The position numbers were made by a program, and so were the translations under genes. 64,000 nt of DNA from Acidimicrobiia bacterium. Lineage in GTDB: Bacteria; Actinomycetota; Acidimicrobiia; Spongiisociales; ZC4RG35. The notes under the pieces were generated by a model that saw nothing but the letters and a program-made list of their open reading frames with translations, was not told the DNA's origin and searched no databases. The stretch covers positions 13,628-77,627 of the forward strand of contig JBGTKD010000192.1 in the NCBI GenBank assembly GCA_041744795.1, given 5' to 3'. Shown piece by piece: positions 7,256-48,686 of the stretch; positions within the stretch are counted from its first letter, which is position 1; every line of letters starts with the position of its first letter.

Positions 7256-7732
7256 TCAGCCGGTGAAGGTTTTGACGTCCTTCACCGTGACCGTGAACTT
7301 CCCACCGGGTGCCTGATAGCTGACCTCGTCGCCGACTCCGGCACCCAGCAACGCCTTTCCCAACGGGCCGTCCGGTGATGCCAGCAGGACCCCTGGTTGC
7401 TTGTTCTCTGGTGAGGCCACAAAAAAGTCGTTCTCGTCGCCATCTGCGTCGACCAGGGTGACGACAGATCCCACGATGACCGTGTCTTTGGCCTCGACTG
7501 TGCGCACTTCGGCCTTGTCAAGGAGCGCCTGGACCTGGCGAATCCTGGCCTCCATCAGGCCCTGGTCGTTCTTGGCCGCGTCGTAGTCGGCGTTCTCGCG
7601 AAGGTCGCCGTGCTCTCGTGCGGTCTGGATGCGCTGTTCGATCTCGGCTCGTCCTGTCGTTAGGAGGTGTTCGAGTTCGTCCTGCAGTTTCTGGTGGGCT
7701 TCAGGTGTCAGGAATGTGGTGTCTTTGGTCAT
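7256..7732 (-). CDS. greA: transcription elongation factor GreA
   Basis: N-terminal coiled coil with acidic tip (LRENADYDAAKNDQG) and a C-terminal FKBP-like domain. Start MTKDTTFLTPEA at 7732. Confidence 0.9.
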   Translation of the reverse strand: MTKDTTFLTPEAHQKLQDELEHLLTTGRAEIEQRIQTAREHGDLRENADYDAAKNDQGLMEARIRQVQALLDKAEVRTVEAKDTVIVGSVVTLVDADGDENDFFVASPENKQPGVLLASPDGPLGKALLGAGVGDEVSYQAPGGKFTVTVKDVKTFTG

Positions 7733-7848
7733 GAGATCTTCGGGTCGGGGAAGCATCAAACGATAGGGACCGGGCGCGTTGGTTGGCGAATGGGCGATGT
7801 CGCCTCGTGATGCCTCGACCGGAGGATCCGCAGGTAGCGTCCCTGCGG

Positions 7849-8889
7849 ATGGAACCAGTACGGCTAACGAGTTTCAGTCACGGCGCCGGTTGAGCCTGCA
7901 AGCTCGGGTCATCCGAGTTGGCGCAGGTTCTGCGTCCGTTGCACGGCCACCAAGCCTCGACACACCCTGACCTGATCGTCGGGACGGAGACGTCAGACGA
8001 TGCCGGGGTGTATCGCATCGCGCCCGGGCAGGCACTGGTCCAAACGGTGGACTTCTTCACACCGGTCGTCGACGACGCCTACGACTGGGGTCGCATCGCC
8101 GCTGCCAACGCTCTCTCTGACATCTATGCCATGGGGGCTACGCCGTTGACTGCCCTGCAACTGCTCGGTTGGCCGCGTGATGTAATCGCCTGGGAGGTGG
8201 CGGGCGAGGTGATCCGGGGCGGTGCCGATGTGATGGCTTCTGCGGGTTGCACGATCGTGGGTGGGCATTCCGTAGATGACGCCGAACCCAAGTACGGGTT
8301 TGCCGTCACGGGCCTCGTCGATCCAGAGCGCGTGATGACCAACGCCAGCGCCCGACCGGGGGAATCGCTCATACTCACCAAGCCGATCGGTACAGGTGTG
8401 GTGACCACCGCCATCAAGCGAGGAGCGTGCCCGGATGACCTGCGGGAGCGGGTGGTGGCCCAGATGGCCGAACTGAACGACCGCGCGGCGAGAGCCGCCA
8501 CTTCGGTGGGGGTGGCTGCGGCGACCGACGTCACGGGTTTTGGACTCCTTGGCCATCTGCATGAAATGTTGCGAGCAGCGGACCTGTCAGCGGTCCTCGA
8601 CGTAGGCGCCGTTCCAGTGCTCGCCGGCGCCGCCCGGTTGTTGGCAGACGGGCACTTTCCCGGCGGTTCCGGCCGCAATCTCGCCGCCGTCGCGCCGTTT
8701 GTGGACGGGGATGCGGCGACGGACGATATCCGGATGCTGTCCGATGCTCAGACCTCTGGGGGTTTGTTGTTTGCAACTTCCCAGGTCGAAGCCCTGCAGG
8801 CAGCTTTGGCTCGCGAGGGGGCCGAAGGCTGGGTCATCGGGCGGCTCACTGCCGACACCGGGACGCGGATGCGGCTCGAATCTCGCTAG
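7849..8889 (+). CDS. selD: selenide, water dikinase (selenophosphate synthetase), selenocysteine-containing form; in-frame UGA (Sec) at 7891-7893
   Basis: Reading upstream of the ORF-track start in the same frame gives ATG 7849, M-E-P-V-R-L-T-S-F-S-H-G-A-G-[TGA]-A-C-K-L-G-S-S-E-L-A-Q-V-L. This matches the SelD N-terminus (E. coli [25 protein letters not shown]) with Sec in place of the catalytic Cys. The rest (LVQTVDFFTPVVDD, GGHS...) is canonical SelD. The ORF track therefore truncated the N-terminus. Confidence 0.85.
7894..7927 (+). promoter_or_regulatory. bacterial SECIS-like stem-loop immediately 3' of the selD UGA
   Basis: CCTGC(7895-7899)/GCAGG(7923-7927) outer stem and CTCGG(7903-7907)/CCGAG(7913-7917) inner stem with apical loop GUCAU (preceded by G-G). 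The hairpin starts 2 nt after the UGA, at the position expected for a bSECIS. Confidence 0.55.
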
Positions 8890-8916: not shown

Positions 8917-9345
8917 GTGGAACCACTCAACAGGCTCACGACCATCGCGGAAGCGCTCTCGATCCCCCGGGTACAGCGCCACATTTTTCTGTGCGCAGAT
9001 CAGACGAACCCGAAGTGCGCACCGTACGCCGAGACCAACGAGGTGTGGCGCTACCTCAAAGCCCGCTGCAAGGAACTGGGAATCTCCTCCGCACCGCCCA
9101 GCTGGCACGGAGTGCCGACCGTCCCGGCCGTTGCCACTCCTCCCGGCGACGGTTCCGTTCTGCGTACCAAGGTGGATTGCCTGCGGATATGTGAGATGGG
9201 CCCCATTGCCGTGGTGTATCCGGACGGCGTTTGGTACCACTCAGTGACCGTGCCGGTCATGGAGCGGATCATTACCGAACACCTCGTGGGAGGCGTCCCC
9301 GTCGCTGAGCACACCTTCGCCGTTGGCGCGCTGGACTCGCAATGA
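8917..9345 (+). CDS. thioredoxin-like [2Fe-2S] ferredoxin (NuoE/HoxF-type fold)
   Basis: Four Cys in the pattern [13 protein letters not shown] ... [21 protein letters not shown] typical of Trx-like [2Fe-2S] ferredoxins; 142 aa. Confidence 0.7.
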
Positions 9346-10309: not shown

Positions 10310-10387
10310 TCAGTCGTTGTCCATTATCTGCTTGACGACGAAGCCGACGAGGCCCGCCACCAGCAGGAACATGAGGAATTTCTTCAT
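10310..10387 (-). CDS. candidate 25-aa hydrophobic small peptide (MKKFLMFLLVAGLVGFVVKQIMDND)
   Basis: Short ATG ORF in the intergenic gap, made of a single predicted TM helix with charged ends. An 8-bp hairpin GCTGATCG-CGA-CGATCAGC (10285-10303) lies just downstream of its stop. It is too short for composition statistics. Confidence 0.2.
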   Translation of the reverse strand: MKKFLMFLLVAGLVGFVVKQIMDND

Positions 10388-10460
10388 AGTGTCCAGTCTA
10401 CGCGGTAGCGAAAGTTCTGACGCTTGGAGAGTTGCGCCGCGGGATATCTACGCTGCCAGC

Positions 10461-10907
10461 ATGCGTTCTCTCATCTCGGTCGTCCTCGTCGCGCTGCTTG
10501 CCGCCTGCAGCGGTGCGGACGTGACGTCGCCGACGACCGCACCCAGCACCTCCACAACTGACACGGCCTCCACAGCCACCACCACACTTCCCACCGGATC
10601 GACTTCTACCACCATCGAGTCGACGACCCTTACCACTGAGCCGGTCGACCCTTATGCCTTCGACATCGTGATCGATGGCTCGACGGTCACCGGGGGCGGC
10701 CGGATCTCGGTTCCATTGGGCGAGACGGTGACCCTTCGCTTCACGTCCGACATCGCAGACGAGATCCACATCCACGGCTATGAACTCATACTCGACCTCG
10801 AGCCGGGCGTGACCGCCGAGATCAGCTTCCTCGCCGACATTCCTGGCATCGTCGAGATAGAAACTCATGGCAACCACCAGATCGTTGCCAACCTCGAGTC
10901 GAGTTGA
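10461..10907 (+). CDS. lipoprotein with Ser/Thr-rich linker and C-terminal beta-sandwich-like domain
   Basis: MRSLISVVLVALLAACSG lipobox signal, an STSTTDTASTATTT linker, and a C-terminal domain containing the EIHIHGYE His cluster. The ORF-track start at 10317 is an upstream extension. Confidence 0.6.
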   Translation: MRSLISVVLVALLAACSGADVTSPTTAPSTSTTDTASTATTTLPTGSTSTTIESTTLTTEPVDPYAFDIVIDGSTVTGGGRISVPLGETVTLRFTSDIADEIHIHGYELILDLEPGVTAEISFLADIPGIVEIETHGNHQIVANLESS

Positions 10908-12292
10908 TGCGTCGTCGTCTGACAGTCATCTCAGCGGCGGCCACCACCGTCGCTGTCATGCCTCTACCCGCCTTGGCCCACGGTATCGGTGGCCGGGCGG
11001 ACCTTCCCGTTCCGTTGGAGTTCTTTGTTATTGCCGCCTCGGTCGTACTGGTGCTCACTTTTGTGGGGCTGGCGGTTCTCTGGCCGGACGTGCGACTGCA
11101 GGACGTGCCGCCCGAACCGCAAGGGCGACCCATCCGCTGGCTGTGGAACCTCTTGGGGGTGGTGGGGGCCTTGATGCTGGTCGTTTCGATCGTCACCGGG
11201 GTCTTTGGCATTGACAACAGCACCCGGAATCCCAACGGGGTAATCGTTTTCGTCGGTCTCTGGTTGGTGGTGCCGTTCGTTGCCGCTCTGCTCGTCGACC
11301 TCTATCCCGCGATCAGCCCTTGGCGGCGCCTACCCGCGTGGCTGGGACTACATCCCGCAGAGCGCCCGGAGATGGTCGACCGCCTCGGATATTGGCCGGC
11401 GACCGGGGTGTTCCTCGCCTTCACGTGGTTCGAGTTGGTTGCTCCGAGCAACGGACCGCGGGCCATCGGGATAGCGGCGGTCATCTTCACCCTCTACATG
11501 CTGGGCATGGCGATATGGCTCGGTCCGGACACCGCCGCCCACACATCCGACGGCTTCGCCGTATACGCCCGCTTTCTGGGGGCGATGGCTCCGTTCACGT
11601 TCCGGGACGGGGTCTGGCGTCGTCAGGGCTGGCTCCGCGGCCTGGTCCAGCTACCCGAGCGCACTGGCATGGCGGCCTTCGTGGTGGCGATGATCGGGAC
11701 AGTCACCTACGACGGTGCCTCCTCGACCCAGTGGTGGGCGGAGTCGCTACGCGAGCCGTTGGTTGTCGGCCTCGAGAGCTGGGGCCTGTCCTTTCGGCCT
11801 GCTGGTGTTGTTGTGGGAACGGTTGGCTGGGCTGTGGTCACACTGCTCGTCGGGCTCGCGTACTACACCGCATCGGGTGCGGCTGCCCGCCTCGGAGGAG
11901 CGGACTTCTCAGCCAGACATGTGGCAACCCGCTTCGCCCACACCCTCGTGCCGATCGGCTTCGCCTACGCCTTCGCCCACTATTTCACACTGGTCATCTT
12001 CGAGGGCCAGTTGTTCCTGTCGACCTTCTCGGATCCTTTCGGATTGGGTTGGGACCTCTTTGGCACGGCCGACCGCCGGATTGACTACTCGCTACTTCAA
12101 CAGTCGAGGGCCTGGGTCTGGTACGTGCAGGTGGGTGTGATCGTCGCCGGGCATATTGGTGGCGTGATCCTCAGCCACGACCGGGCGCTCGCCGACTTCC
12201 CGAAAGCGAAGGCCGTGGCGTCGCAGTACGCAATGCTGGCGCTGATGGTGGTACTCACTGGGATCGCTCTTGTTCTGATGGCAGCGGGATGA
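10904..12292 (+). CDS. polytopic integral membrane protein (signal peptide + ~10 TM)
   Basis: 462 aa. N-terminal signal AVMPLPALAHG, then many hydrophobic segments rich in W/G/F. It is translationally coupled to the upstream lipoprotein (overlap ATGA). I assign no family. Confidence 0.6.
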   Translation: MMRRRLTVISAAATTVAVMPLPALAHGIGGRADLPVPLEFFVIAASVVLVLTFVGLAVLWPDVRLQDVPPEPQGRPIRWLWNLLGVVGALMLVVSIVTGVFGIDNSTRNPNGVIVFVGLWLVVPFVAALLVDLYPAISPWRRLPAWLGLHPAERPEMVDRLGYWPATGVFLAFTWFELVAPSNGPRAIGIAAVIFTLYMLGMAIWLGPDTAAHTSDGFAVYARFLGAMAPFTFRDGVWRRQGWLRGLVQLPERTGMAAFVVAMIGTVTYDGASSTQWWAESLREPLVVGLESWGLSFRPAGVVVGTVGWAVVTLLVGLAYYTASGAAARLGGADFSARHVATRFAHTLVPIGFAYAFAHYFTLVIFEGQLFLSTFSDPFGLGWDLFGTADRRIDYSLLQQSRAWVWYVQVGVIVAGHIGGVILSHDRALADFPKAKAVASQYAMLALMVVLTGIALVLMAAG

Positions 12293-12477
12293 TCACATTC
12301 GCCCACGGGCTCTACCTTGACGAATTCCTCTGGTTCGTCGTGCCTGTGGGCCTGTCGTTGTGGGCTCTGCGCTGGGCAGAGCGCAGGGCGCGGGAGAAGG
12401 CGGAGGCAGCCCACGTCGAGGAAGGGACTGGCCCCGCACAGGAAGAGGCGGCGAACCGACCAGCCGCCGACGGGTAG
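12289..12477 (+). CDS. small membrane protein (62 aa)
   Basis: Its ATG overlaps the previous stop. It has one TM helix (FLWFVVPVGLSLWAL) and a charged tail. Confidence 0.3.
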   Translation: MITFAHGLYLDEFLWFVVPVGLSLWALRWAERRAREKAEAAHVEEGTGPAQEEAANRPAADG

Positions 12478-12496
12478 TGGCTATCCTCGCCCACCG

Positions 12497-13627
12497 ATGA
12501 GTGAGTTCCTCGCTGCCGCTGCCAGCACGATGGACGTACCCGAGGCGCTGGTGAAGCGCTCCGCTGAGGCGCGTTCGAAATCGACTGGCGCATCGATCGA
12601 CGAGATCCTCCAGGCTTGGGCCGGTGGCGGTCCCGCTCCTGTCGGTTCTTCCTCGCCGACTCCGCCGGAACCGCAGACGGCTGTGGCGACGGAACCGTCT
12701 GCTCCAGTGGTCTCAGAGTCTGCCGAGGAGACCGCGCCTGCTGCCCAATCCGTTCCGCCAGTCGCTCCTGTCGCGGTGGCCCTGATGGACGAACCCGCTG
12801 AGGAACCTGTCGATGCCGCCCCGTTGCGCGAGCGTGTCCGCGTCGGGGGTCGTATCGGTATGGGATTCGGAGTGGTCGCTGCGGTGTTCGTGATGGTGTT
12901 CAGCGCCCAGTGGCTGCTTCCGCGAGCCGGCGTTGCGCCGTCGGAGACCGGAGACGTGGTGTTCGCCTTCTCGGTCGCGGCTGGCTCTCTACTGCTCGGA
13001 TCAGGCTTGATCGGAATCGCCTTGGGTGTGGCGGGGGCGGCGTTCATCCGGGCGGTGACCGGGTGGAAGAGCCCTGGCATGCGTCTGGTCTCCTCCACCA
13101 CTTCCTCGCTGGTGGTCGGCGCAGTGGCAGGACTTGTCACCGGAATCGTGGTGGCCTCTGTCGTTGCAGGGTCAGGGGTCGAAGACACATTGGATCCGAC
13201 CGTCACCGTCGTCCCGATGCTGGCCGCCCTTGTTTGGACTCTGTTTGGCTGGGTGGCGGGTGGTTGGATGATCGGGGCCTTGGTTCATGCTCTCGGCGTG
13301 CCCGACGGCCTCGACGAGGCAGAGAAGACCGAGGGCACCGTCGTTCAGCGCCGGTTGAGCGCCGCCTTCGGGTTGCCGGTCGTGGCGGCAGTCTCCATCG
13401 CTTTGATTGTGCTGCCCGCCGCCTGGGTGTTCATTCAGTTCCCTGGATGGGCGCCAGTTATCGCGATCTTCATCTCCGGCGCCATCATCGCCTTTGCTTT
13501 TCTGGCTGCCGCCCGCCCCGGCATGCGCATCACCGCGGGCGAGTTCCTGGTGGCGGCGGCGGGTGTAGGCGTGGTAGTCCTAATTCTCGCAAGCGTCCTC
13601 TTCACTCAAGGCGCCGGCGGCCACTAA
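12497..13627 (+). CDS. membrane protein with cytoplasmic N-terminal domain, Pro/Ala-rich linker and multi-TM C-terminus
   Basis: ATG 12497 (MSEFLAAAAS...). The PAPVGSSSPTPPEPQTAVATEP linker is followed by ~8 hydrophobic helices. Confidence 0.55.
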   Translation: MSEFLAAAASTMDVPEALVKRSAEARSKSTGASIDEILQAWAGGGPAPVGSSSPTPPEPQTAVATEPSAPVVSESAEETAPAAQSVPPVAPVAVALMDEPAEEPVDAAPLRERVRVGGRIGMGFGVVAAVFVMVFSAQWLLPRAGVAPSETGDVVFAFSVAAGSLLLGSGLIGIALGVAGAAFIRAVTGWKSPGMRLVSSTTSSLVVGAVAGLVTGIVVASVVAGSGVEDTLDPTVTVVPMLAALVWTLFGWVAGGWMIGALVHALGVPDGLDEAEKTEGTVVQRRLSAAFGLPVVAAVSIALIVLPAAWVFIQFPGWAPVIAIFISGAIIAFAFLAAARPGMRITAGEFLVAAAGVGVVVLILASVLFTQGAGGH

Positions 13628-17220: not shown

Positions 17221-18006
17221 TCAGTAGGGGGTGTCGCCGCCATCGACGTTGATTGCCTGACCGCGAATGACGACGGCGGCATCCGAGAGAAGAAACGCAA
17301 CGACCCGGCCCACTTCGATCGGCTGGACCTTGCGGCCGAGTTGGGCGGGACCCATTCCGGCTAAGAGTTCTTCAGAGGGGACGTTCAATCTCGGGGCCAG
17401 CCAATCGGCCACTCCGGCGAGCATCGGCGTATCGACCCCTCCTGGGCAAACGGCGTTGACGTTGATCCAGTCAGCGGCCCACTCCAGAGCGAGCGTACGC
17501 GTGAGGTTGATCACGGCAGCCTTGGAGGCGTTGTAAGCCGCCATGTTCTTGTAGCCGACCTTGCCGCAGTTCGAGGCCACGTTGACGATTGCTCCACCTC
17601 CGGATTCGCGCAGGTGGCGTCCCACTGCCTGGGCCATGACGAAGCTTCCTGTCACGTTGACCGCCAGCTCCCGGTCAAAGGCGTCGGCGGAGGAGTCCCA
17701 CGCCGCGTCAAGGGTCACAATTCCGGCGTTGTTCACGATCCCGTCCAGTCGGCCGAAGTGATCTATTGCCGCCCGGACGCAGGATTCAGCATCGTCGACG
17801 GACACGACGTTGCCTTCGACCGGCAGCGTCCTGTCTCCGTTCGGGTCGGTGCGCTCAGCCACAGCCTGGGCTGGCTTGAGGCGCAAATCGAAGAGGACGA
17901 CCCGCCCGCCCTGTTCGAGAATCGCCGCGGTCACTCCCTCGCCGATTCCCCCGCCAGCACCTGTCACGATGTAGGAACGGTCTTGCAGGTCCATCCGGGT
18001 TACCAC
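17221..18006 (-). CDS. SDR family oxidoreductase
   Basis: TGAGGGIGEG Rossmann motif, NNAG, and YNASKAA catalytic triad region. Confidence 0.8.
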   Translation of the reverse strand: MVTRMDLQDRSYIVTGAGGGIGEGVTAAILEQGGRVVLFDLRLKPAQAVAERTDPNGDRTLPVEGNVVSVDDAESCVRAAIDHFGRLDGIVNNAGIVTLDAAWDSSADAFDRELAVNVTGSFVMAQAVGRHLRESGGGAIVNVASNCGKVGYKNMAAYNASKAAVINLTRTLALEWAADWINVNAVCPGGVDTPMLAGVADWLAPRLNVPSEELLAGMGPAQLGRKVQPIEVGRVVAFLLSDAAVVIRGQAINVDGGDTPY

Positions 18007-28536: not shown

Positions 28537-29343
28537 CTATTTGACGAGTTCGCGTTCCAGGACGTCGAGGCGGCGTTCCTCTGCGATCCACTTGAACCAG
28601 ATCCGGGCGATGATCCCCAGCAGGTAAAACGCGCCGCCAATCTTCATGAGGATTCCGGCGATCGTCTGGTCCTCCACTGGAGTAATACCCCATGTGAGCG
28701 GGGCGTCGCCGTACACCGGGTAAAGCTGATAGTCGCTGAAAGTCAATAACGACGCAGGAACGATCGGAACGATCGTGTTCAAAAAGATGTAGCCGATTCG
28801 AGCTGGTGCAGACAGCCGGGGGATTTCCGGTGTCGGGCTGAATCCCGGGAGCCACAGCAGCATTGCGGTGGCGAAGAATCCGAGATGGACCAGAAAGTGT
28901 CCCCCCTCGGTCTGGTTCTGCCACGCCACCGCGGTGGGCCAGTGGATGGCGACGATCGCAGCATTGAAAGTGATGAGACCCACAACCGGGGTTGCGACCT
29001 TGCGCAGGATCGGCGCGACCCTGGGGTGTCCCAGAGTGCGATCTGCCATCCAGCGCGGCATGCCTACCAACAGCAGCGGAGGCACGACGTAGCCGATGAG
29101 CATGTGCTCGAGCATGTGGAACGTGAACAGCGTCTGCTCGGCGAGGTCGTGTATCGGCCAGCCGGCAGCAACGAGCAGCACACCCACCCCGGCGTACCAG
29201 GCTCGCCATTGGACCCGGGTGGCCGGTGCTGCCTTGGGTGCTACCAGCGGACGTAGCCGCCGTTCGGCCCACCACCAGCCGATGGCCAGGATGGCGATCA
29301 GCGCCAGAACGTCCAAGTGGAGGTGGAAGTCGGGGAGAGGCAT
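28537..29343 (-). CDS. ctaG: caa3-type cytochrome c oxidase assembly factor CtaG-like membrane protein
   Basis: 268 aa, ~7 TM helices with conserved His (HLHLDV, HMLEHM). It is the last gene of the ctaCDEF operon, as in Bacillus ctaG. Confidence 0.55.
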   Translation of the reverse strand: MPLPDFHLHLDVLALIAILAIGWWWAERRLRPLVAPKAAPATRVQWRAWYAGVGVLLVAAGWPIHDLAEQTLFTFHMLEHMLIGYVVPPLLLVGMPRWMADRTLGHPRVAPILRKVATPVVGLITFNAAIVAIHWPTAVAWQNQTEGGHFLVHLGFFATAMLLWLPGFSPTPEIPRLSAPARIGYIFLNTIVPIVPASLLTFSDYQLYPVYGDAPLTWGITPVEDQTIAGILMKIGGAFYLLGIIARIWFKWIAEERRLDVLERELVK

Positions 29344-29349
29344 GTCGCC

Positions 29350-29664
29350 CTAGCGGGTAATCAGCCCCAGAAGGAAAGAACCGATCACGATGCCGTAGAG
29401 GGCGAGGGCCAGGATGAACCCTCCTGCGAAAAAGCGGGTCAGCACCGGCTTTTCGAAACGCAGGTGCATGAACCAGCCGATGACCACGACGAACTTGAAG
29501 AACGACAGGATGATCAGAAGGGGTCCGTCCCATCCCTGCATGTCGACGGCTTCGTCGATATAGAACAGCGCAACCTCGACGGCGGTGACGATCCCCAAGA
29601 GGATGGCGATCTTGACGTACTGACCGGTGGTCGGATGAGCGACGTCGTGGGTGCCTTCAGACAT
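29350..29664 (-). CDS. ctaF: cytochrome c oxidase subunit IV (prokaryotic CtaF)
   Basis: ~104 aa, three TM helices. Start ATG 29664 overlaps the ctaE stop. Confidence 0.7.
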   Translation of the reverse strand: MSEGTHDVAHPTTGQYVKIAILLGIVTAVEVALFYIDEAVDMQGWDGPLLIILSFFKFVVVIGWFMHLRFEKPVLTRFFAGGFILALALYGIVIGSFLLGLITR

Positions 29665-30299
29665 CAGACTGCTCCGAGCAGGTAGACGATGGTGAAGATG
29701 ACGATCCAAATGATGTCGACGAAGTGCCAGTACAGCCCAACCAATTCCAGGTTCATGCCGTGCTTCTCCGACAGCCCGCCCTGGCGCTTGGACATCCCGA
29801 AGAGCGACAACAGCATGACCACGCCGATCGCTACGTGGGCGCCGTGGAAGCCAGTCAACATGAAGAAGGCAGACGACGCAGGGTTGGTCGTGAGCGTCAT
29901 GCCGTAGACCTGGATGAACTCATAGAACTCGAAGACCTGTCCGCCTAGGAAGAGTGATCCGAGCATGGCGGTGGCCAACAGCCACGTTCGTGTCCCGTTC
30001 TGGTCCCCCTGCGCCAGTGAGTGATGGGCGAGCACCATCGTCAGCGAGCTCATGAGAAGCACGAACGAAGATACCGAGGTGAACGGGATGTCGTAGATCT
30101 CCCGAGGCACGACGGTCGCGCCGAAGGTGTCGTTGCCGTAGACGAGATAGTTTGTGATGAGCGCGCCGAAGAACAGGAACTCGGAGCTGAGGAACAGCCA
30201 CATCCCCAGCTTTCGGTTATCGATTCCGAACGACTCGTGCTCTCCGTGACCCCCGTGATCTTCGGCGTGGTCCGCGTTGGCTTGCATCGTGTCAGCCAT
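29664..30299 (-). CDS. ctaE: cytochrome c oxidase subunit III
   Basis: 211 aa. HESFGIDNRKLGMWLFLSSEFLFFGALI matches subunit III. Confidence 0.9.
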   Translation of the reverse strand: MADTMQANADHAEDHGGHGEHESFGIDNRKLGMWLFLSSEFLFFGALITNYLVYGNDTFGATVVPREIYDIPFTSVSSFVLLMSSLTMVLAHHSLAQGDQNGTRTWLLATAMLGSLFLGGQVFEFYEFIQVYGMTLTTNPASSAFFMLTGFHGAHVAIGVVMLLSLFGMSKRQGGLSEKHGMNLELVGLYWHFVDIIWIVIFTIVYLLGAV

Positions 30300-32302
30300 C
30301 AGTACGCCTCGGCCATTTCCGACTCGGGATGTTCGTCATGCGGCTCTTCCAGCGGCTCCATGCCCCATCCGAGCAGGGCGCCGAGGGCGACGATTACTCC
30401 TATAGCGATGAGCAGCTTCCCGGCGAGGCCCTCGTGGAAGATGATCCCGTATGCGATCAACGGCAGACCGGAGGCCATGATGATCGGGTAGTAGGACGGG
30501 TTGGGCAGGTGGATAGGCGACTTTGGGTTCCGCCCGTCGTGGTCCATCCGGTCTACCAACTCGTCAGCGTCGTCCTTGCGAACCGCTCTGCCTTCTTCAT
30601 CCTCGCCGTACTTCATGTGCCAGAAGTGGTCGAGGCTGGTGACGACAGGATTCTCGGCGAAGTTGTACTCCGGGGTCGGGTTGGGGATGCTCCACTCGAT
30701 TGTCCGGGCGTCCCAAGGATCCAGTCCGGAGGCCGGACCTTTCCGCTTCGACCAGGTCCAGTTGAACATGAATACGAGGATCGAGAGGGCGATGGTGAAC
30801 GCTCCGATGGTCACTGCCAGGTTCCAAGGCCCGAAGTTCGTCTCGGGGGCATAGCGCCAGGTGCGTCGGACCATGCCTTGCAGCCCAAGCCAGTGCATGG
30901 GGGCGAAAGTCAGGTTGAAACCTATGAACTGGATCCAGAAGTGCGTCTTTCCGAGCGCTTCGTTCATCATCCGGCCGGTCAGCTTGGGGAACCAGTAGTA
31001 CAGGCCGGCGAAGATCCCAAAGATCGCTCCGCCGAAGAGCACGTAGTGGAAGTGAGCGACGATGTAGTACGTGTCGGTCTGCTGCCAGTCAGACGGGACC
31101 ACGGAGTGGGTCACGCCGGACAGTCCGCCGATCACGAACATCGCCACAAAGCCAATGGCGAACAACATCGGGGTGGTCAAACGTATTCGCCCGCCCCACA
31201 TCGTCCCCAGCCAGTTGAAGATTTTGATGCCCGTCGGGATAGCGATGGTCATTGTCGATAGACCGAACGCCGCCTGGGCGACCGGGGTGAGTGCCGAGGA
31301 GAACATGTGGTGGGCCCACACGCCGAAACCCAGGAAGGCGATGGCGCCGCCGGCGAAGACGATGGCTGCGTATCCGAACAGCGGCTTGCGGGAGAAGACG
31401 GGCAGAACTTCTGAGACGATGCCCATCGCGGGGAGGATGAGGATGTAGACCTCGGGGTGGCCAAACAGCCAGAACAGGTGCTGCCAAAGAATTGGATCGC
31501 CTCCGCCCGCCGCCTGGAAGAACAAGGTTCCGAAAGACCGGTCAAAGGTCCCCATGAACAAGGCGACGGCAATGATCGGCAGCGAGAACAGCAGCAGGAA
31601 GGCGACCACCATCGTCATCCAGATGAACACCGGCATCCGGAGCAGCCGCATGCCCTTGGCCCGCATGTTGAACACCGTGACGAGAAAATTCACCGACGAA
31701 ATCAGCGACGCGATACCCAGGATCTGCAATCCGAGCAGGGCGAAGTCGACGGCCGCGCCCGGCGAGAAGTCGGGACCGGCGTTCGGTTGATAAAGGAACC
31801 ATCCGCCGTCTGGCAGACCGCCCAAGAGCGTCTGGTCGGTCGGGTCGATGTTCCCGGGGACTCCTTCCACGCCGAGTGGCGGGGTCACTTGGCCGAAGAA
31901 GATCACCGAATAGAGGAATATCGCCCCCGCCAGGAAAATCCACCACGACAGGGCGTTCATCCGCGGGAAGGCCACGTCCCTGGCGCCGATCATGAGTGGC
32001 AGCAGGTAGTTCATGAAGGCGGCGGAAACCGGCATCACGAACAGGAAGATCATCGTGAGACCGTGAGTGGAGAACAGGGCGTTGTACTCCGCGGCGGTTA
32101 GGAAGTCGCCGTTAGGGCCGGCCAGCTGGAGACGGAGCAGCAGGGCTTCGATTCCTCCGATGATGAAGAACGTGAAGGCGGCGTAGCCATACATGATGCC
32201 GATTTTCTTGTGATCGACAGTCGTGATCCATGACCAGAAGCCCGTGGTGGACTCGGGACGGCGGAAGATCGTCGACGACGGGCGTTGGGTCGTGGCGGTC
32301 AC
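30299..32302 (-). CDS. ctaD: cytochrome c oxidase subunit I (with C-terminal 2-TM extension)
   Basis: KKIGIMY, GHPEVYILILP and WAHHMF heme-copper oxidase motifs. 667 aa including a C-terminal extra helical hairpin. Confidence 0.95.
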   Translation of the reverse strand: MTATTQRPSSTIFRRPESTTGFWSWITTVDHKKIGIMYGYAAFTFFIIGGIEALLLRLQLAGPNGDFLTAAEYNALFSTHGLTMIFLFVMPVSAAFMNYLLPLMIGARDVAFPRMNALSWWIFLAGAIFLYSVIFFGQVTPPLGVEGVPGNIDPTDQTLLGGLPDGGWFLYQPNAGPDFSPGAAVDFALLGLQILGIASLISSVNFLVTVFNMRAKGMRLLRMPVFIWMTMVVAFLLLFSLPIIAVALFMGTFDRSFGTLFFQAAGGGDPILWQHLFWLFGHPEVYILILPAMGIVSEVLPVFSRKPLFGYAAIVFAGGAIAFLGFGVWAHHMFSSALTPVAQAAFGLSTMTIAIPTGIKIFNWLGTMWGGRIRLTTPMLFAIGFVAMFVIGGLSGVTHSVVPSDWQQTDTYYIVAHFHYVLFGGAIFGIFAGLYYWFPKLTGRMMNEALGKTHFWIQFIGFNLTFAPMHWLGLQGMVRRTWRYAPETNFGPWNLAVTIGAFTIALSILVFMFNWTWSKRKGPASGLDPWDARTIEWSIPNPTPEYNFAENPVVTSLDHFWHMKYGEDEEGRAVRKDDADELVDRMDHDGRNPKSPIHLPNPSYYPIIMASGLPLIAYGIIFHEGLAGKLLIAIGVIVALGALLGWGMEPLEEPHDEHPESEMAEAY

Positions 32303-33453
32303 GAAAGTGTCTCCATCCAGGCGATCAGGTCATCTATCTCTTGCTGTGTCAATCCGAGGTCTGGCATGAACGAACCGGGCTTCACCTTCGGCGGGTTGGC
32401 CAGCCACTCGGTTAGAGCCTGGCGGTAGGGGAGGCCCTCATAGGGAAGGTATGCCCCGGCGAACACGTCCCGACTGGCGAAGTGGGTGAGGTTGGGTCCG
32501 TTGAAACCGGGAGGAAGGATGTTGTCGGCGATGCCTTGGTCGTTGTCTTCGAAGTCGACCGTGTGGCATTGGGTGCAGCCCTTGTTCATGAACACCTGCA
32601 GCCCGTCCCAGGCCTGGGTCCCTTCGGCAGGAATCCGCGCTTCTCCCTGCTGGGCGATCACCCAGGCATCAAAGTCTGCCCGGCTGAGAACCTCCGCTTG
32701 GGTGCGCATGAGCGAATGCGAGAGCCCGCAGAACTCCGCGCAGTGACCCCAGAACACTCCCGGCTCATAGGCGTGCAGGCGCAGAAGTGTCTCCTGGCCT
32801 GGAACTAGGTAGCGCTTCCCGTTGAGGGCGGGAATCCAAAAGTTGTGAATCACGTCTTGTGAAGTCATCACCGCACAGATCTCCTCGCCTGCGGGCATGA
32901 CCAACACGTTGGCCGTTTCGATCCCGTGATCCGGGTATTGGAACTCAAACCACCACTGGTGGCCGATGACCTCGATGACCATGGAGTCGCTGTCGCATCC
33001 GGTCAGCTCGAAGACTCCCTGCACGGTTGGAATGGCGATCCCGGCGAGAATCAAGGCGGGGATGACGGTCCAGGCGACTTCCAGCTTCGCATTGCCGTGG
33101 GTCTGTTTTGGCTCTTTGCGGTTCGGTCGGTCACGGAAAGCGATGACAGCGAAGACGAGCGCCCCCTGGACGACCACAAATACAGCAGTGGCGATCCAGA
33201 ACACCGGCCAGAAGAGTCCGTCGATGTGGTCGGCGATCGGGCCGGCGGGTTCGAATGTGGTCAGCGGCGAGTCGATCTCTATGAAGGAACACGAGGACAG
33301 CACCAGGCCCAACAGGGCGACACCAATAAAGCGAAAACGGGACGCTGACCTGGACGAGCGGCGCCACCGAGGGTGCTGAACCATGGGGCGAGTGTAAGTG
33401 CCGGAATAGGTCGCGGCCAAGCCAAGCGGCAAAGGCCCATTTTGCCGCTTCAA
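32299..33453 (-). CDS. ctaC: cytochrome c oxidase subunit II, caa3-type with C-terminal cytochrome c domain
   Basis: CuA ligands HNFWIP...HCAEFCGLSHSLM and a C-terminal CTQCH heme-c site. TTG start with GGAAGA RBS. Lipobox-like LSSCSF. Confidence 0.9.
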   Translation of the reverse strand: MKRQNGPLPLGLAATYSGTYTRPMVQHPRWRRSSRSASRFRFIGVALLGLVLSSCSFIEIDSPLTTFEPAGPIADHIDGLFWPVFWIATAVFVVVQGALVFAVIAFRDRPNRKEPKQTHGNAKLEVAWTVIPALILAGIAIPTVQGVFELTGCDSDSMVIEVIGHQWWFEFQYPDHGIETANVLVMPAGEEICAVMTSQDVIHNFWIPALNGKRYLVPGQETLLRLHAYEPGVFWGHCAEFCGLSHSLMRTQAEVLSRADFDAWVIAQQGEARIPAEGTQAWDGLQVFMNKGCTQCHTVDFEDNDQGIADNILPPGFNGPNLTHFASRDVFAGAYLPYEGLPYRQALTEWLANPPKVKPGSFMPDLGLTQQEIDDLIAWMETLS

Positions 33454-45029: not shown

Positions 45030-48000
45030 TTGGATCGAAGCGGGACCGTTTGTGTGATCGCCTCCCCGCGCTCGCCGGGTGAGGAGTACATTTCGTCGGG
45101 ACTGGAGGGTTCTCTGTTGGAGTGTCCGAATTGTGGTCATGGGAACACCCGTGATGCCAAGTTCTGTGCGCAATGCGGGACGGGGTTGACAGTCGCGTGC
45201 GGTGTCTGTTCGGCCGTTGGCGATCCGGGGGCGGCTTTCTGTACGAACTGCGGGGCGGCTTTCGGCGCCCCTGCCAGCGGTGAGAATGAGCTCGCCCGGT
45301 ATCTGCCGCAGGAACTGCTGACCAAGCTCGAATCCGCTAGAGCGGGCAGGGCGATGCAGGGGGAGCGGCGCACTGTCACGATGCTGTTCGCCGACATCAA
45401 GGGTTCGACCGCCGCCGCCGAAAAGCTCGATCCAGAAGATTGGGCCGAGATAGTCAACGGTGCTTTCGAACACCTGATCGCGCCGGTTTATCACTACGAG
45501 GGCACCCTCGCCCGCCTCCAGGGCGACGCAGTCCTGGCCTTTTTCGGTGCGCCCATCGCCCACGAGGACGACCCTGTGCGGGCGCTGCGCGCCGGGCTTG
45601 AGATCATCGAGGCGATCGGCGACTACCGCCACCAGATCGAGAGCCGTTGGGGAGTATCGATCGAAGCTCGAGTGGGGATCCACACCGGTCTCGTGGTCGT
45701 CGGTGAAGTGGGCTCCGACCTACGGGTCGAATACACCGCTCTGGGGGACGCGATCAACGTCGCAGCCCGGATGGAGCAAGCCGCCGAACCAGGAACGGTT
45801 TTCGTGACCGACCACACACGGTCCCTCACTGGCGGGGCATTCGAGTTCGAATCGTTAGGCCCGGTCGAAGTGAAAGGAAAGGCCGAGCCGGTCATTGCCC
45901 ACCGGGTGCTCCGGTTTATCGGCGATCACGACACCGCCTCTCCGACGGCTCTCATCGGGAGATCGAACGAGATGGAACGCCTCGAAGCTCTGCGTGCCCA
46001 GCTCGTAGCTGGCTCCGGATGGGTCGCATCGATCACCGCAGATGCGGGCGTGGGCAAGTCCCGTCTGCTGCGCGAGTTCCGAGACTCGACCGAAGCCGCC
46101 GCGATACTCTCGGTGCGCTACGACCAGCCCGGCGAAGTGGCATGGATGACCGGCGCCGGCCGCTCGTACGAGACAGCCACGCCGTTCGCTGCCGTCAGCG
46201 ACCTTCTGAACCGGTGGTGGGGCCTTGTCGATGCAGATGAGCCTTTCGAACGTGTCGAGTCTGCGATCGCTTCGATCGAATGTACCTATCCCGACGGCGC
46301 CGCCCTGCTCTCCCACATCGGCGGCGTCGCCCTCTCAGGCGATGCGGCGGCTTTCGTGGCTGCGCTCGAGGCTCCGGTCCTTCACAGCAAGGCCGCAGTG
46401 GCTTTTACGTCGTACCTTGAGGCCTCTGCCCGGAGACGCCCCGTGCTGATCGTGCTCGAAGATGTCCACTGGGCCGACGACCTGTCCCTGGCCCTCTTCG
46501 AGTCGATTATGGAGTTAACCGAACGCCTCCCCATCGGTCTCATCGTGGCGATGCGGCCATACAGGGAAGACACCTCGTGGCACATTCACCAGGTGGCCGA
46601 ACGCGACCACCCCCACAGGTATCACCAGTTGGCGCTGTCCCCACTGACCACCGACGATGGTGGCGCACTCCTCGATTCGCTGCTCGCTGAAACCGAGATA
46701 CCGGCCGAGACGAGGCAACGGATTCTCGACCGTTCCGCTGGCAACCCCCTGTTCCTCGAAGAGATGGTGAGGACGCTCAGCGAATCCGGATCGGCTACGG
46801 TGCCGACCTCGCTCGCCACCATCCTCACGGCCCGTCTCGACCGCCTCGACGAGTCCACCCGTTACGTCGTGCAGATGGCCTCGGTGATTGGATCCGAATT
46901 CGATCGGGCCACACTGGCTGCCCTGCTCGATCGGGACACGCCCGACCGGGAGATCATCGACCTGCAGCGCCGGGGCATTGTCGTGGACGCCGGACGGGGA
47001 ATGCTTGCGTTCCGGCACGTTCTGATGCAGGAGGCGGCTTACGAGACGATCCTCCGTCGGACTCGGAGAGAACTGCACCGAATGATCGCCGATCACTACG
47101 TGACGGAACGGCCGGAAGAGGTGCAGGGCATCTCCCGCCATCTCACCGAGGCGGGTGACATCGAAGCGGCGTTCCCATACCTTGTCGAGGCGGGCGTCAG
47201 AGCAACCCGGGCGATGGCCCTTGGAGATGCGATCCGACTTCTCACCGAAGCGATAGACAACACGCCAATTGGAGCAGACCCGGCGGTCATCGTGCGTGCC
47301 CACGACACGCTGGGGGCCGCGCATTCCCTAGTGCCGGATCTGTCCAAGGCGGCGGCGGTGTATCAAAGCTTGTACGACTACGGCGAAAGGACGTCCGAAC
47401 CTGCGGCTCGGGTAGCGGCGCTCAACCGGCTGGCCTTCGCCACTGCGTCGCTCAGCGGCAACTTCCAAGACGCGACCGACTACCTCGCTCAGGCCCGGGA
47501 ACTGGCAGAGGAGTCGGGGGACGACGTCGGCCTTGCCGAATATCACATGAACTCGTGTTTCGTGGCCGCCATGAGCGGTGACCTTCGCGGGGCCGTGAGG
47601 CATGACGAAAGCACTGTCGAGGCAGGCGAACGTGCTGGTGCGCCAGGGATCCGCCTCGAGGGGATGATGCGCCGTGCCGTTAACTACGCCGCCCTGCTCG
47701 AACTCGAACAGGCCGAAGCGGCCATCGAATCGGCGCTCGATGCGGCCAAGGACGCAGGGGCTCAAGAAGAGCAGGCCATCATCGAGTCCTTCGCATTGGG
47801 TGTCGTCCGGTATTGGCGGGGGGACCTGCGGGCGGCACTCGACCTGATCGAACGAAACCATGACTCACTCAGTCGCTACGGCTCGTTCTACGAGTCGATC
47901 AATCGGGTGAGGGCAGGGGAGGTCTTCTTCGATCTTGGCGAACCGGAAACCGCCTTGAGTCGTTTTGCCGGTGCACGGCGCGTGGGAGAACAAAACGGGC

Positions 48001-48686
48001 AGGCCTTCGTCATTGCGGCCGGTTCAGCCGGCATGGCGTTCGTGTATGCCTCGGCCGGAATCCACGAATCCCTCCCCCGGTTGCGAGAGGAGGCTCTCGC
48101 TGCGCAAGGACAGCCAATGGGTGAGTTCCTCGCCAACACCGTATGGACCGACTTGGGATGGGCGAATTTGGCATCCGGAGAATTCTCGGTGGCCGAGGCT
48201 GACTTCGCGGAAGGGCTGGCGACGTCGTCGGTGACGCAGTTCACCCACAGGGCCCGTCAGCTCCTGGGCCTGGCTCTGGCGTTGATCGCGTTAGGAAGGC
48301 TGGGTGAGGCAGCCGCCCCGCTCGCCGAGGCTCGGGATTTCATACTGGGTCGGGGGTTGGTGGTTGCAGAACCCCTGCTGTTCTGGGTGGAGAGCGAATA
48401 TCACGTCGCACACGGACGCTTAGAGGGAGCCAACGGGTCACTGGTTGCGGCCCACGAGACCGCCTTGAGTTTGGGCAGACGCTGTCTGCTCCTGCCGATT
48501 CTCGGCACTCGCGCTCGGCTGGCTCGCGCCACCGGCGACATGGCGGCCAGCACCCAACATCGGACTGCTGCCCTCGAACTCATAGACACGATCGTCGCGC
48601 CGATTGTCGATGAGGCATTGGCAGCGGGCCTTCGTTCACGCTGGACACGTGAACTCGATCGTGCCGAGGTCGGTTTCACCGTCTGA
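45030..48686 (+). CDS. multidomain signalling protein: double zinc ribbon + class III adenylate/guanylate cyclase + AAA/NB-ARC-like ATPase + TPR-like helical C-terminus
   Basis: 1218 aa. N-terminal CPNCG...CAQCG...CGVC...CTNCG (two Zn ribbons). Cyclase core RRTVTMLFADIKGSTAAAE...LQGDAVLAFFGAP...GIHTGLVVVGEVGS. Walker A SITADAGVGKSRL. Long helical repeat region. No LuxR-type HTH at the C-terminus. Confidence 0.85.
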   Translation: MDRSGTVCVIASPRSPGEEYISSGLEGSLLECPNCGHGNTRDAKFCAQCGTGLTVACGVCSAVGDPGAAFCTNCGAAFGAPASGENELARYLPQELLTKLESARAGRAMQGERRTVTMLFADIKGSTAAAEKLDPEDWAEIVNGAFEHLIAPVYHYEGTLARLQGDAVLAFFGAPIAHEDDPVRALRAGLEIIEAIGDYRHQIESRWGVSIEARVGIHTGLVVVGEVGSDLRVEYTALGDAINVAARMEQAAEPGTVFVTDHTRSLTGGAFEFESLGPVEVKGKAEPVIAHRVLRFIGDHDTASPTALIGRSNEMERLEALRAQLVAGSGWVASITADAGVGKSRLLREFRDSTEAAAILSVRYDQPGEVAWMTGAGRSYETATPFAAVSDLLNRWWGLVDADEPFERVESAIASIECTYPDGAALLSHIGGVALSGDAAAFVAALEAPVLHSKAAVAFTSYLEASARRRPVLIVLEDVHWADDLSLALFESIMELTERLPIGLIVAMRPYREDTSWHIHQVAERDHPHRYHQLALSPLTTDDGGALLDSLLAETEIPAETRQRILDRSAGNPLFLEEMVRTLSESGSATVPTSLATILTARLDRLDESTRYVVQMASVIGSEFDRATLAALLDRDTPDREIIDLQRRGIVVDAGRGMLAFRHVLMQEAAYETILRRTRRELHRMIADHYVTERPEEVQGISRHLTEAGDIEAAFPYLVEAGVRATRAMALGDAIRLLTEAIDNTPIGADPAVIVRAHDTLGAAHSLVPDLSKAAAVYQSLYDYGERTSEPAARVAALNRLAFATASLSGNFQDATDYLAQARELAEESGDDVGLAEYHMNSCFVAAMSGDLRGAVRHDESTVEAGERAGAPGIRLEGMMRRAVNYAALLELEQAEAAIESALDAAKDAGAQEEQAIIESFALGVVRYWRGDLRAALDLIERNHDSLSRYGSFYESINRVRAGEVFFDLGEPETALSRFAGARRVGEQNGQAFVIAAGSAGMAFVYASAGIHESLPRLREEALAAQGQPMGEFLANTVWTDLGWANLASGEFSVAEADFAEGLATSSVTQFTHRARQLLGLALALIALGRLGEAAAPLAEARDFILGRGLVVAEPLLFWVESEYHVAHGRLEGANGSLVAAHETALSLGRRCLLLPILGTRARLARATGDMAASTQHRTAALELIDTIVAPIVDEALAAGLRSRWTRELDRAEVGFTV

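Follow-up and report, generated by a model that had tools for sequence, protein, structure and literature searches.

Where does the selD gene begin in a 64,000-nucleotide (nt) stretch of contig JBGTKD010000192.1 from an Acidimicrobiia bacterium (assembly GCA_041744795.1), and is the UGA that lies in its frame a stop codon or a codon for selenocysteine (Sec)? In the list of open reading frames (ORFs) compiled for the whole stretch, hereafter the window, selD runs from a TTG at 7918 to 8889. An earlier note, made from the letters alone, held instead that the N-terminus of selD had been cut at an in-frame Sec UGA and that a hairpin follows this codon. The evidence presented here favors, with a probability of roughly 0.92, a gene at 7849–8889 of the forward strand that encodes a Sec-containing selenophosphate synthetase and carries a bacterial Sec insertion sequence (bSECIS) downstream of the UGA. 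The features concerned are the following.

7849–8889, forward strand: full-length selD (selenophosphate synthetase), 346 codons including one probable Sec codon, as indicated by translation, hidden Markov model and structure match.
7849–7851, forward strand: likely true start codon ATG; ATG or GTG occupies the aligned codon in 15 of 19 orthologues that carry TGA (Sec-type, below).
7891–7893, forward strand: in-frame UGA, probably read as Sec, at the position of Cys17 in Escherichia coli SelD (alignment to 3u0o; conservation of the TGA).
7918–7920, forward strand: TTG start of the ORF caller, an internal Leu codon in the 3′ arm of hairpin A.
7901–7919, forward strand: hairpin A, with a stem of 7 base pairs (bp; 7901–7907/7913–7919), closing pair 7908/7912 and triloop 7909–7911; it equals the inner stem of the structure in the earlier note.
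7920–7936, forward strand: hairpin B, with a 7-bp stem (7920–7926/7930–7936) and triloop GUU (7927–7929); candidate SelB-binding apical loop.
7895–7927, forward strand: the 33-nt stem-loop drawn in the earlier note, whose non-conserved outer stem (7895–7899/7923–7927) competes with hairpin B.

The reading frame itself is open on both sides of the UGA. Translated in the same frame, 7801–8889 gives ...RMEPVRLTSFSHGAG up to the TGA at 7891–7893 and ACKLGSSELAQVL... beyond it, with the ATG at 7849; in fuller form, the translation from 7801 is RLVMPRPEDPQVASLR-MEPVRLTSFSHGAG before the TGA and ACKLGSSELAQVLRPLHG... after it. Counted from ATG 7849, the UGA is codon 15 of selD, and the ORF caller drops the first 23 codons of the gene. 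When the restored protein was compared with NCBIfam profiles (all protein searches were run with the UGA translated as Cys), TIGR00476 (selD) returned 393.7 bits against a cutoff of 125, with residues 5–312 on profile positions 1–308, and NF002098 returned 372.7 bits against a cutoff of 299, with residues 2–343 on positions 4–344. Since the selD models are matched from profile position 1, the proposal of a truncated N-terminus has been borne out.

Alignment with proteins of known structure leads to the same place. E. coli SelD (3u0o) matches the restored protein at E = 4e-82 over residues 3–345, the N-terminus of the window protein appearing in this alignment as pvRLTsfSHGAG-U-aCK. The UGA falls on C17 within SHGAGCGCK of 3u0o, three residues before the equivalent of Lys20, and it also aligns with the corresponding Cys of the Aquifex chain 2yye, so that the earlier placement of Sec at the catalytic Cys holds. 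The Gly-rich loop with its catalytic Cys or Sec and its Lys, by which membership of the SelD family is judged, is present only if the UGA is read through. The product of a start at TTG 7918 would lack the catalytic Sec/Cys and Lys loop.

The UGA cannot simply have been reassigned throughout the genome. TGA ends 34 of the 48 genes in the window considered for stop usage, which makes it the commonest stop, and as an ordinary stop it requires site-specific decoding, and thus a local signal, at codon 15 of selD.

Conservation among relatives is the next line of evidence. A homologue search was run over 5.8 billion proteins, and scans of genomes and metagenomes added further loci; the metagenome scan with the protein query returned mostly Cys-type loci (a Cys-encoding HGAGCACK pattern) together with at least three new Sec-type loci. 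Among the matches listed, the comparison set comprised 19 distinct Sec-type sequences (TGA) and 124 Cys-type relatives (TGC or TGT). The Sec-type sequences, mostly labelled as Acidimicrobiia metagenome-assembled genomes, come from different samples, projects and assemblers, and could be aligned without gaps (alignment column c corresponds to window position 7881 + c). TGA is thus kept at the aligned codon in 19 distinct orthologues from Acidimicrobiia genomes and metagenomes at 56–92% identity, while in the 124 more distant relatives the codon is TGC or TGT. Of the database proteins, the 28 nearest (67–92% identity) are all N-terminally truncated, at 290–327 residues, and miss the N-terminal motif; the full-length relatives among the matches listed, at slightly greater distance, are all Cys proteins with SHGAGCACK. 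For ten of the truncated proteins, DNA was obtained via the contigs encoding them, and all ten have the TGA, preceded by an open, conserved RLTxFSHGAG frame.

The codons upstream of the UGA have also been maintained as protein. The earlier note had taken a loss of this upstream frame in orthologues as a sign against its reading; the frame is conserved in 19, and across the 19 assemblies the 14 codons 5′ of the UGA encode a conserved peptide. Pairwise comparison of the 11 codons that precede the UGA in the Sec-type sequences gives 623 synonymous differences against 398 others. An ATG or GTG sits 10–14 codons 5′ of the UGA in the Sec-type orthologues, and the residues immediately 5′ of ATG 7849 show no conservation across the 19; an in-frame ATG farther upstream, at 7810, is a possible alternative start. 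Start sites of the database entries vary among relatives, and the TTG position carries no conserved start codon. In a neighbor-joining tree, the window falls within a clade of 16 sequences, all Sec-type, across which the TGA is retained down to about 65% identity. A further four Sec-type sequences lie dispersed among the Cys-type ones, a placement that fits the turnover between Sec and Cys described for SelD (PMC1794560).

What signal could direct Sec to this codon? The minimum-energy structure predicted by RNAfold for 7885–7945 is the 33-nt stem-loop of the earlier note, composed of CCUGC (7895–7899), AGCUCGG (7901–7907), the loop GUCAU (7908–7912), CCGAGUU (7913–7919) and GCAGG (7923–7927), at −27.8 kcal/mol (z = −2.2 versus dinucleotide shuffles). 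As a control, the codons after the TGA were recoded synonymously with the window's own codon usage, and only about 1% of recodings fold equally well (z = −2.48 and a fraction of 0.011 for 12 codons; z = −2.35 and 0.0095 for 16 codons). The structure is therefore modestly but genuinely stronger than the protein sequence by itself dictates.

Comparison across the 19 sequences redraws this structure as two adjacent hairpins. Hairpin A (−8.7 kcal/mol alone) has 96% of its cells paired, and RNAalifold recovers an 8-bp version of it. Its closing pair, 7908/7912, links the synonymous third base of a Gly codon with the first base of a Ser/Ala codon two positions on; it is CG in seven sequences, AU in four, GU in three, UG in three and unpaired in two, and GGR goes with UCC and GGY with GCC (Fisher p = 7e-4, among related sequences). 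Hairpin B (GGCGCAG-GUU-CUGCGUC; −8.6 kcal/mol alone) has 93% of its cells paired, with compensatory changes at aligned pair 7923/7933 from GC to AU in two sequences and from GC to CG in one; its loop is GUY in 18 of the 19 and GUG in the remaining one. Taken jointly, A and B have 94.7% of their cells paired, compared with 27–46% when partners are slid, and their covariation score lies above 500 of 500 shuffles, a result inflated by the relatedness of the sequences.

Conservation does not extend to the outer stem of the 33-nt structure. In 11 of the 19 sequences the counterpart of pair 7896/7926 is broken, no covariation above shuffles was found for 7895–7899/7923–7927 in these sequences, and the stem uses bases of hairpin B, with which it is mutually exclusive; RNAalifold instead prolongs hairpin A by pairing 7897–7899 with 7921–7923. 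Thus, a hairpin does follow the UGA as the earlier note had said, and the inner stem of its drawing is conserved and covarying, but the outer one is not. The claim of G/U in the apical loop fared likewise: the loop of hairpin A starts with GU in the window, but its G is found in only 4 of the 19.

Another means of judging these hairpins is to ask whether they accompany the TGA. The mean folding energy after the codon is −21.4 kcal/mol in Sec-type sequences versus −13.9 kcal/mol in the 124 Cys-type relatives (Mann–Whitney p = 3e-10). Hairpin A is near-complete (at least 7 of 8 pairs) in 95% of Sec-type and 14% of Cys-type sequences, hairpin B (at least 6 of 7 pairs) in 79% and 6%, and both together in 74% and 3%. 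Codon choice follows the same division: Leu+4 is CTC in 19/19 Sec-type sequences versus 60/103 Cys-type, and Leu+13 is CTG or TTG, never CTC, in 19/19 Sec-type, with CTC in 50/88 Cys-type. Ala+10 is GCG in 15 of 18 Sec-type sequences, while the preferred Ala codon of the window is GCC, a bias in keeping with the other fixed codons. In Sec-type proteins the peptide ELAQVL is nearly invariant, and in Cys-type proteins it varies. Such a double constraint, on the peptide and on the codons and structure beneath it, is what an in-frame SECIS predicts.

The published bSECIS consensus calls for an apical loop of 3–9 nt, a stem of 4–16 bp, a minimum free energy of −7.5 kcal/mol or lower, a G within the first two nucleotides of the loop, with G or U as the usual next base, and a distance of 16–37 nt between UGA and loop (PMC13188914). 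Hairpin B agrees with all of these, with its GUU loop, 7 bp, 33 nt from the UGA and −8.6 kcal/mol, and hairpin A agrees in loop, stem and energy. We place the putative SECIS within 7894–7936, and hairpin B seems more likely than A to be the SelB contact.

On the strength of these comparisons, a mechanism can be proposed. Translation would start at ATG 7849, and the UGA at 7891–7893 (codon 15) would be decoded as Sec by Sec-tRNA(Sec), delivered by SelB. SelB would be recruited by mRNA structure lying directly 3′ of the codon inside the coding sequence, that is, by a bSECIS within 7894–7936 made of the two adjacent hairpins A (7901–7919) and B (7920–7936); the GUY loop of B would be the favored SelB contact, and A might serve as a spacer or helper. 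Sec would then sit in the Gly-rich N-terminal loop SHGAG-U-ACK, in place of catalytic Cys17 and three residues before the Lys20 equivalent. The actual insertion of Sec at codon 15 is what we infer from these sequences, and selenium-dependent synthesis, or autoregulation, of SelD would be a reasonable extension of the literature.

Several observations weigh against this interpretation and are gathered here. The 19 sequences are related, so that the statistics from shuffling and from the Fisher test overstate their independence. The K-L-G..E-L codons dictate part of hairpin A, and some Cys-type relatives (L092, L006 and L012) form similar hairpins, for which reasons structure alone is not diagnostic. 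Hairpin A also lies 14 nt from the UGA by strict count, slightly under the 16–37 nt of the consensus, besides the scarcity of its loop G already described. A check with SECIS covariance models, suggested in the earlier note, failed to support the element: SECIS_1 to SECIS_5 of Rfam gave no match, either across the entire window at the gathering threshold or within 7700–8100 at E ≤ 10. This null result is expected, because the Rfam SECIS models do not represent most bacterial SECIS elements, and a preprint on Actinomarina reports that they fail there too (bioRxiv 10.64898/2026.04.03.716425). The sole Rfam match in these searches, mir-9058, was taken as chance.

A further point on the same side is that selA, selB and tRNA-Sec are absent from the 64-kilobase window and from the flanks of every Sec-type relative. 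Pfam and NCBIfam scans of about 57 window ORFs found no SelA or SelB family member, tblastn with SelA and SelB of a Mycobacterium locus (L052) found none in the window or in the Acidimicrobiia loci, and ARAGORN and Rfam found no tRNA-Sec in the window, all of which agrees with the earlier statement that the window holds no other Sec-decoding genes. ARAGORN likewise found tRNA-Sec in no Sec-type locus, a result informative for the flanks only. A crude scan for other TGA-bridged frames in the window returned only antisense artefacts and gene junctions, with no candidate for a second selenoprotein, and it was insensitive, having missed selD itself. In 28 Actinomycetes loci ARAGORN located a tRNA-Sec adjacent to selD, which indicates that the methods work and that the lineage of the window does not cluster its Sec genes with selD. 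In these loci, from Mycobacterium, Actinoplanes and related genera (L052 2898–6981 and 27 others), a Cys-type selD is arranged divergently from a tRNA-Sec–selA–selB cluster. By analogy with published systems, selA, selB and selC are presumably encoded elsewhere in the genome of the host.

How, then, do other explanations of the UGA compare? It is conceivable that the codon is read through without any Sec machinery, for example as Cys or Trp by a near-cognate tRNA, with the hairpins only slowing termination and the product being a non-selenoprotein. The failure to find Sec machinery, whether in the window or in the sequence flanking selD in relatives, would suit this idea, as would the finding that stem-loops adjacent to UGA in eukaryotic selenophosphate synthetase (SPS) genes, known as SRE/HRE, can promote such read-through (PMC4561486). 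However, the UGA occurs exactly where SelD alternates between Sec and Cys (PMC4561486), hairpin B agrees with the bSECIS consensus of the SelB type (PMC13188914), and the Sec trait, including Sec-SelD, has been documented in the same class (bioRxiv 10.64898/2026.04.03.716425). Moreover, a one-base change from TGA to TGY would be favored if Cys were the product, yet TGA has been kept across a clade that reaches down to about 65% identity, and we regard read-through of this kind as highly improbable. A shade less probable again is that the UGA is a true stop, leaving either a functional truncated protein made from TTG 7918 or a decaying pseudogene. ORF callers predict as much here and in all close relatives, but the truncated product would be without its catalytic Sec/Cys and Lys loop, the 14 upstream codons are conserved as protein across 19 independent assemblies and differ largely by synonymous changes, the remainder of the gene is intact and clearly constrained at 56–92% identity, and the TTG is neither a conserved start nor one on which database entries agree. 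As for a sequencing or assembly error in place of TGC or TGT, nothing specific speaks for it beyond the single base that separates TGA from the Cys codons, and it is effectively refuted by the recurrence of the same TGA in 19 distinct sequences that differ in sample, project and assembler.

A more elaborate scheme would accept Sec but divide the labor within a bipartite element, hairpin B acting as the SelB-binding SECIS and hairpin A having a separate role, such as ribosome pausing or RF2 occlusion. A second idea is that a small ferredoxin-like ORF at 8917–9345 supplies SelD with a dedicated partner for redox reactions or selenium delivery. Both ideas seem unlikely on present sequence evidence. 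The ORF in question is as follows.

8917–9345, forward strand: 142-residue ORF adjoining selD on its 3′ side; no Pfam match, and in NCBIfam only a weak hit, below threshold, to thioredoxin-like 2Fe-2S ferredoxins (41.9 bits).

The preferred reading, a Sec-containing SelD with an in-frame bSECIS, has many precedents. Sec-containing SelD ranks second among prokaryotic selenoproteins in breadth of distribution. In bacteria SelD belongs to the two most widespread selenoproteins, and every Sec-decoding bacterium analyzed has a Sec-type FdhA or SelD (PMC1794560). Across a reference set of genomes, 19% of prokaryotic SelD genes encode Sec, in every case at this position (PMC4561486). Bacteria with Sec-SelD include Haemophilus influenzae, Clostridia, Deltaproteobacteria, Rubrobacter xylanophilus and Symbiobacterium thermophilum (PMC1794560), and the gene of the window resembles theirs in belonging to the TIGR00476 family, in its presumed single Sec at the Cys17 equivalent of the Gly-rich loop and in the in-frame stem-loop after the UGA. 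It differs in its host, an uncultured member of the Acidimicrobiia with about 63% GC, in having two adjacent short hairpins rather than one long stem-loop, and in not being clustered with selA, selB and selC. A Sec-type SelD would imply that the lineage decodes selenocysteine and needs selenium.

Closer to the host, the Acidimicrobiia order Actinomarinales has been reported to possess selA, selB and selC together with a Sec form of selD (bioRxiv 10.64898/2026.04.03.716425). The Sec-SelD of Actinomarina, of the same class, is similar in length (342–346 residues) and in its MRLT-type N-terminus, and it too is missed or truncated by standard gene callers; in contrast, those genomes are streamlined, marine, about 1.1 Mb in size and of a different order, and the likeness is one of description rather than of sequence comparison. 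E. coli SelD (3u0o) shares an end-to-end alignment and the SHGAG-C/U-xCK motif, but with Cys17 instead of Sec it needs no recoding element. The archetype of the bacterial SECIS is that of E. coli fdhF, a stem-loop in the coding sequence just 3′ of the UGA with an apical loop that starts G-U. The loop of hairpin B starts in the same way, and that of hairpin A lies at a comparable distance; unlike fdhF, to which there is no sequence similarity, the element described here consists of two 7–8 bp triloop hairpins for which SelB binding is only predicted.

The biology itself is textbook and the kind of gene well known, so that the result is an annotation correction and not a discovery, together with a refined picture of the RNA element. 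The correction extends to the whole Acidimicrobiia SelD clade, currently mis-annotated, and other selenoprotein genes of the host are probably truncated in annotation too. All close relatives are stored at 285–327 residues, without the catalytic loop, in large protein collections. In one such collection, about 50 of the top 120 SelD relatives are stored N-terminally truncated, with assorted false starts. These truncations are a systematic annotation error caused by the Sec UGA.

Among the Cys-type loci, one (L092, 2196–2255) has TGC at the codon and yet retains both hairpins intact (8/8 and 7/7 pairs), over a different peptide (KLAPGEL). These hairpins may be the remnant of a SECIS after a change from Sec to Cys, as has been described for SelD (PMC1794560).

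The local gene order, mgtE, greA (on the opposite strand), selD, the 142-residue ORF and an alpha/beta hydrolase gene, is conserved across the clade. An ORF of 140–145 residues without a Pfam match stands beside selD in most of the Sec-type loci inspected, including one with a rearranged neighborhood (L165), and is missing from another (L171). The 142-residue protein may be a functional partner of SelD. Farther downstream, three consecutive ORFs at 10317–13627 (forward strand; 196, 462 and 436 residues) have no significant family match, and ORFs similar in size and position, also without Pfam matches, follow selD in two other loci (L161 and L163).

Elsewhere in the window, ARAGORN called a 76-nt tRNA-Ser(cga) at 17785–17860 (forward strand), almost certainly falsely: it lies inside a short-chain dehydrogenase gene (17221–18006, reverse strand) and has no Rfam tRNA match. 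An operon for a caa3-type cytochrome c oxidase occupies 28537–33453 (reverse strand), with CtaG, COX3, COX1 and COX2, the last carrying a cytochrome c domain, and on this basis the host is probably an aerobe. This would be notable, since most bacteria rich in selenoproteins are anaerobic (PMC1794560). Finally, a protein of 1218 residues encoded at 45030–48686 (forward strand) combines zinc ribbons, an adenylate/guanylate cyclase domain, an AAA ATPase and TPR repeats.

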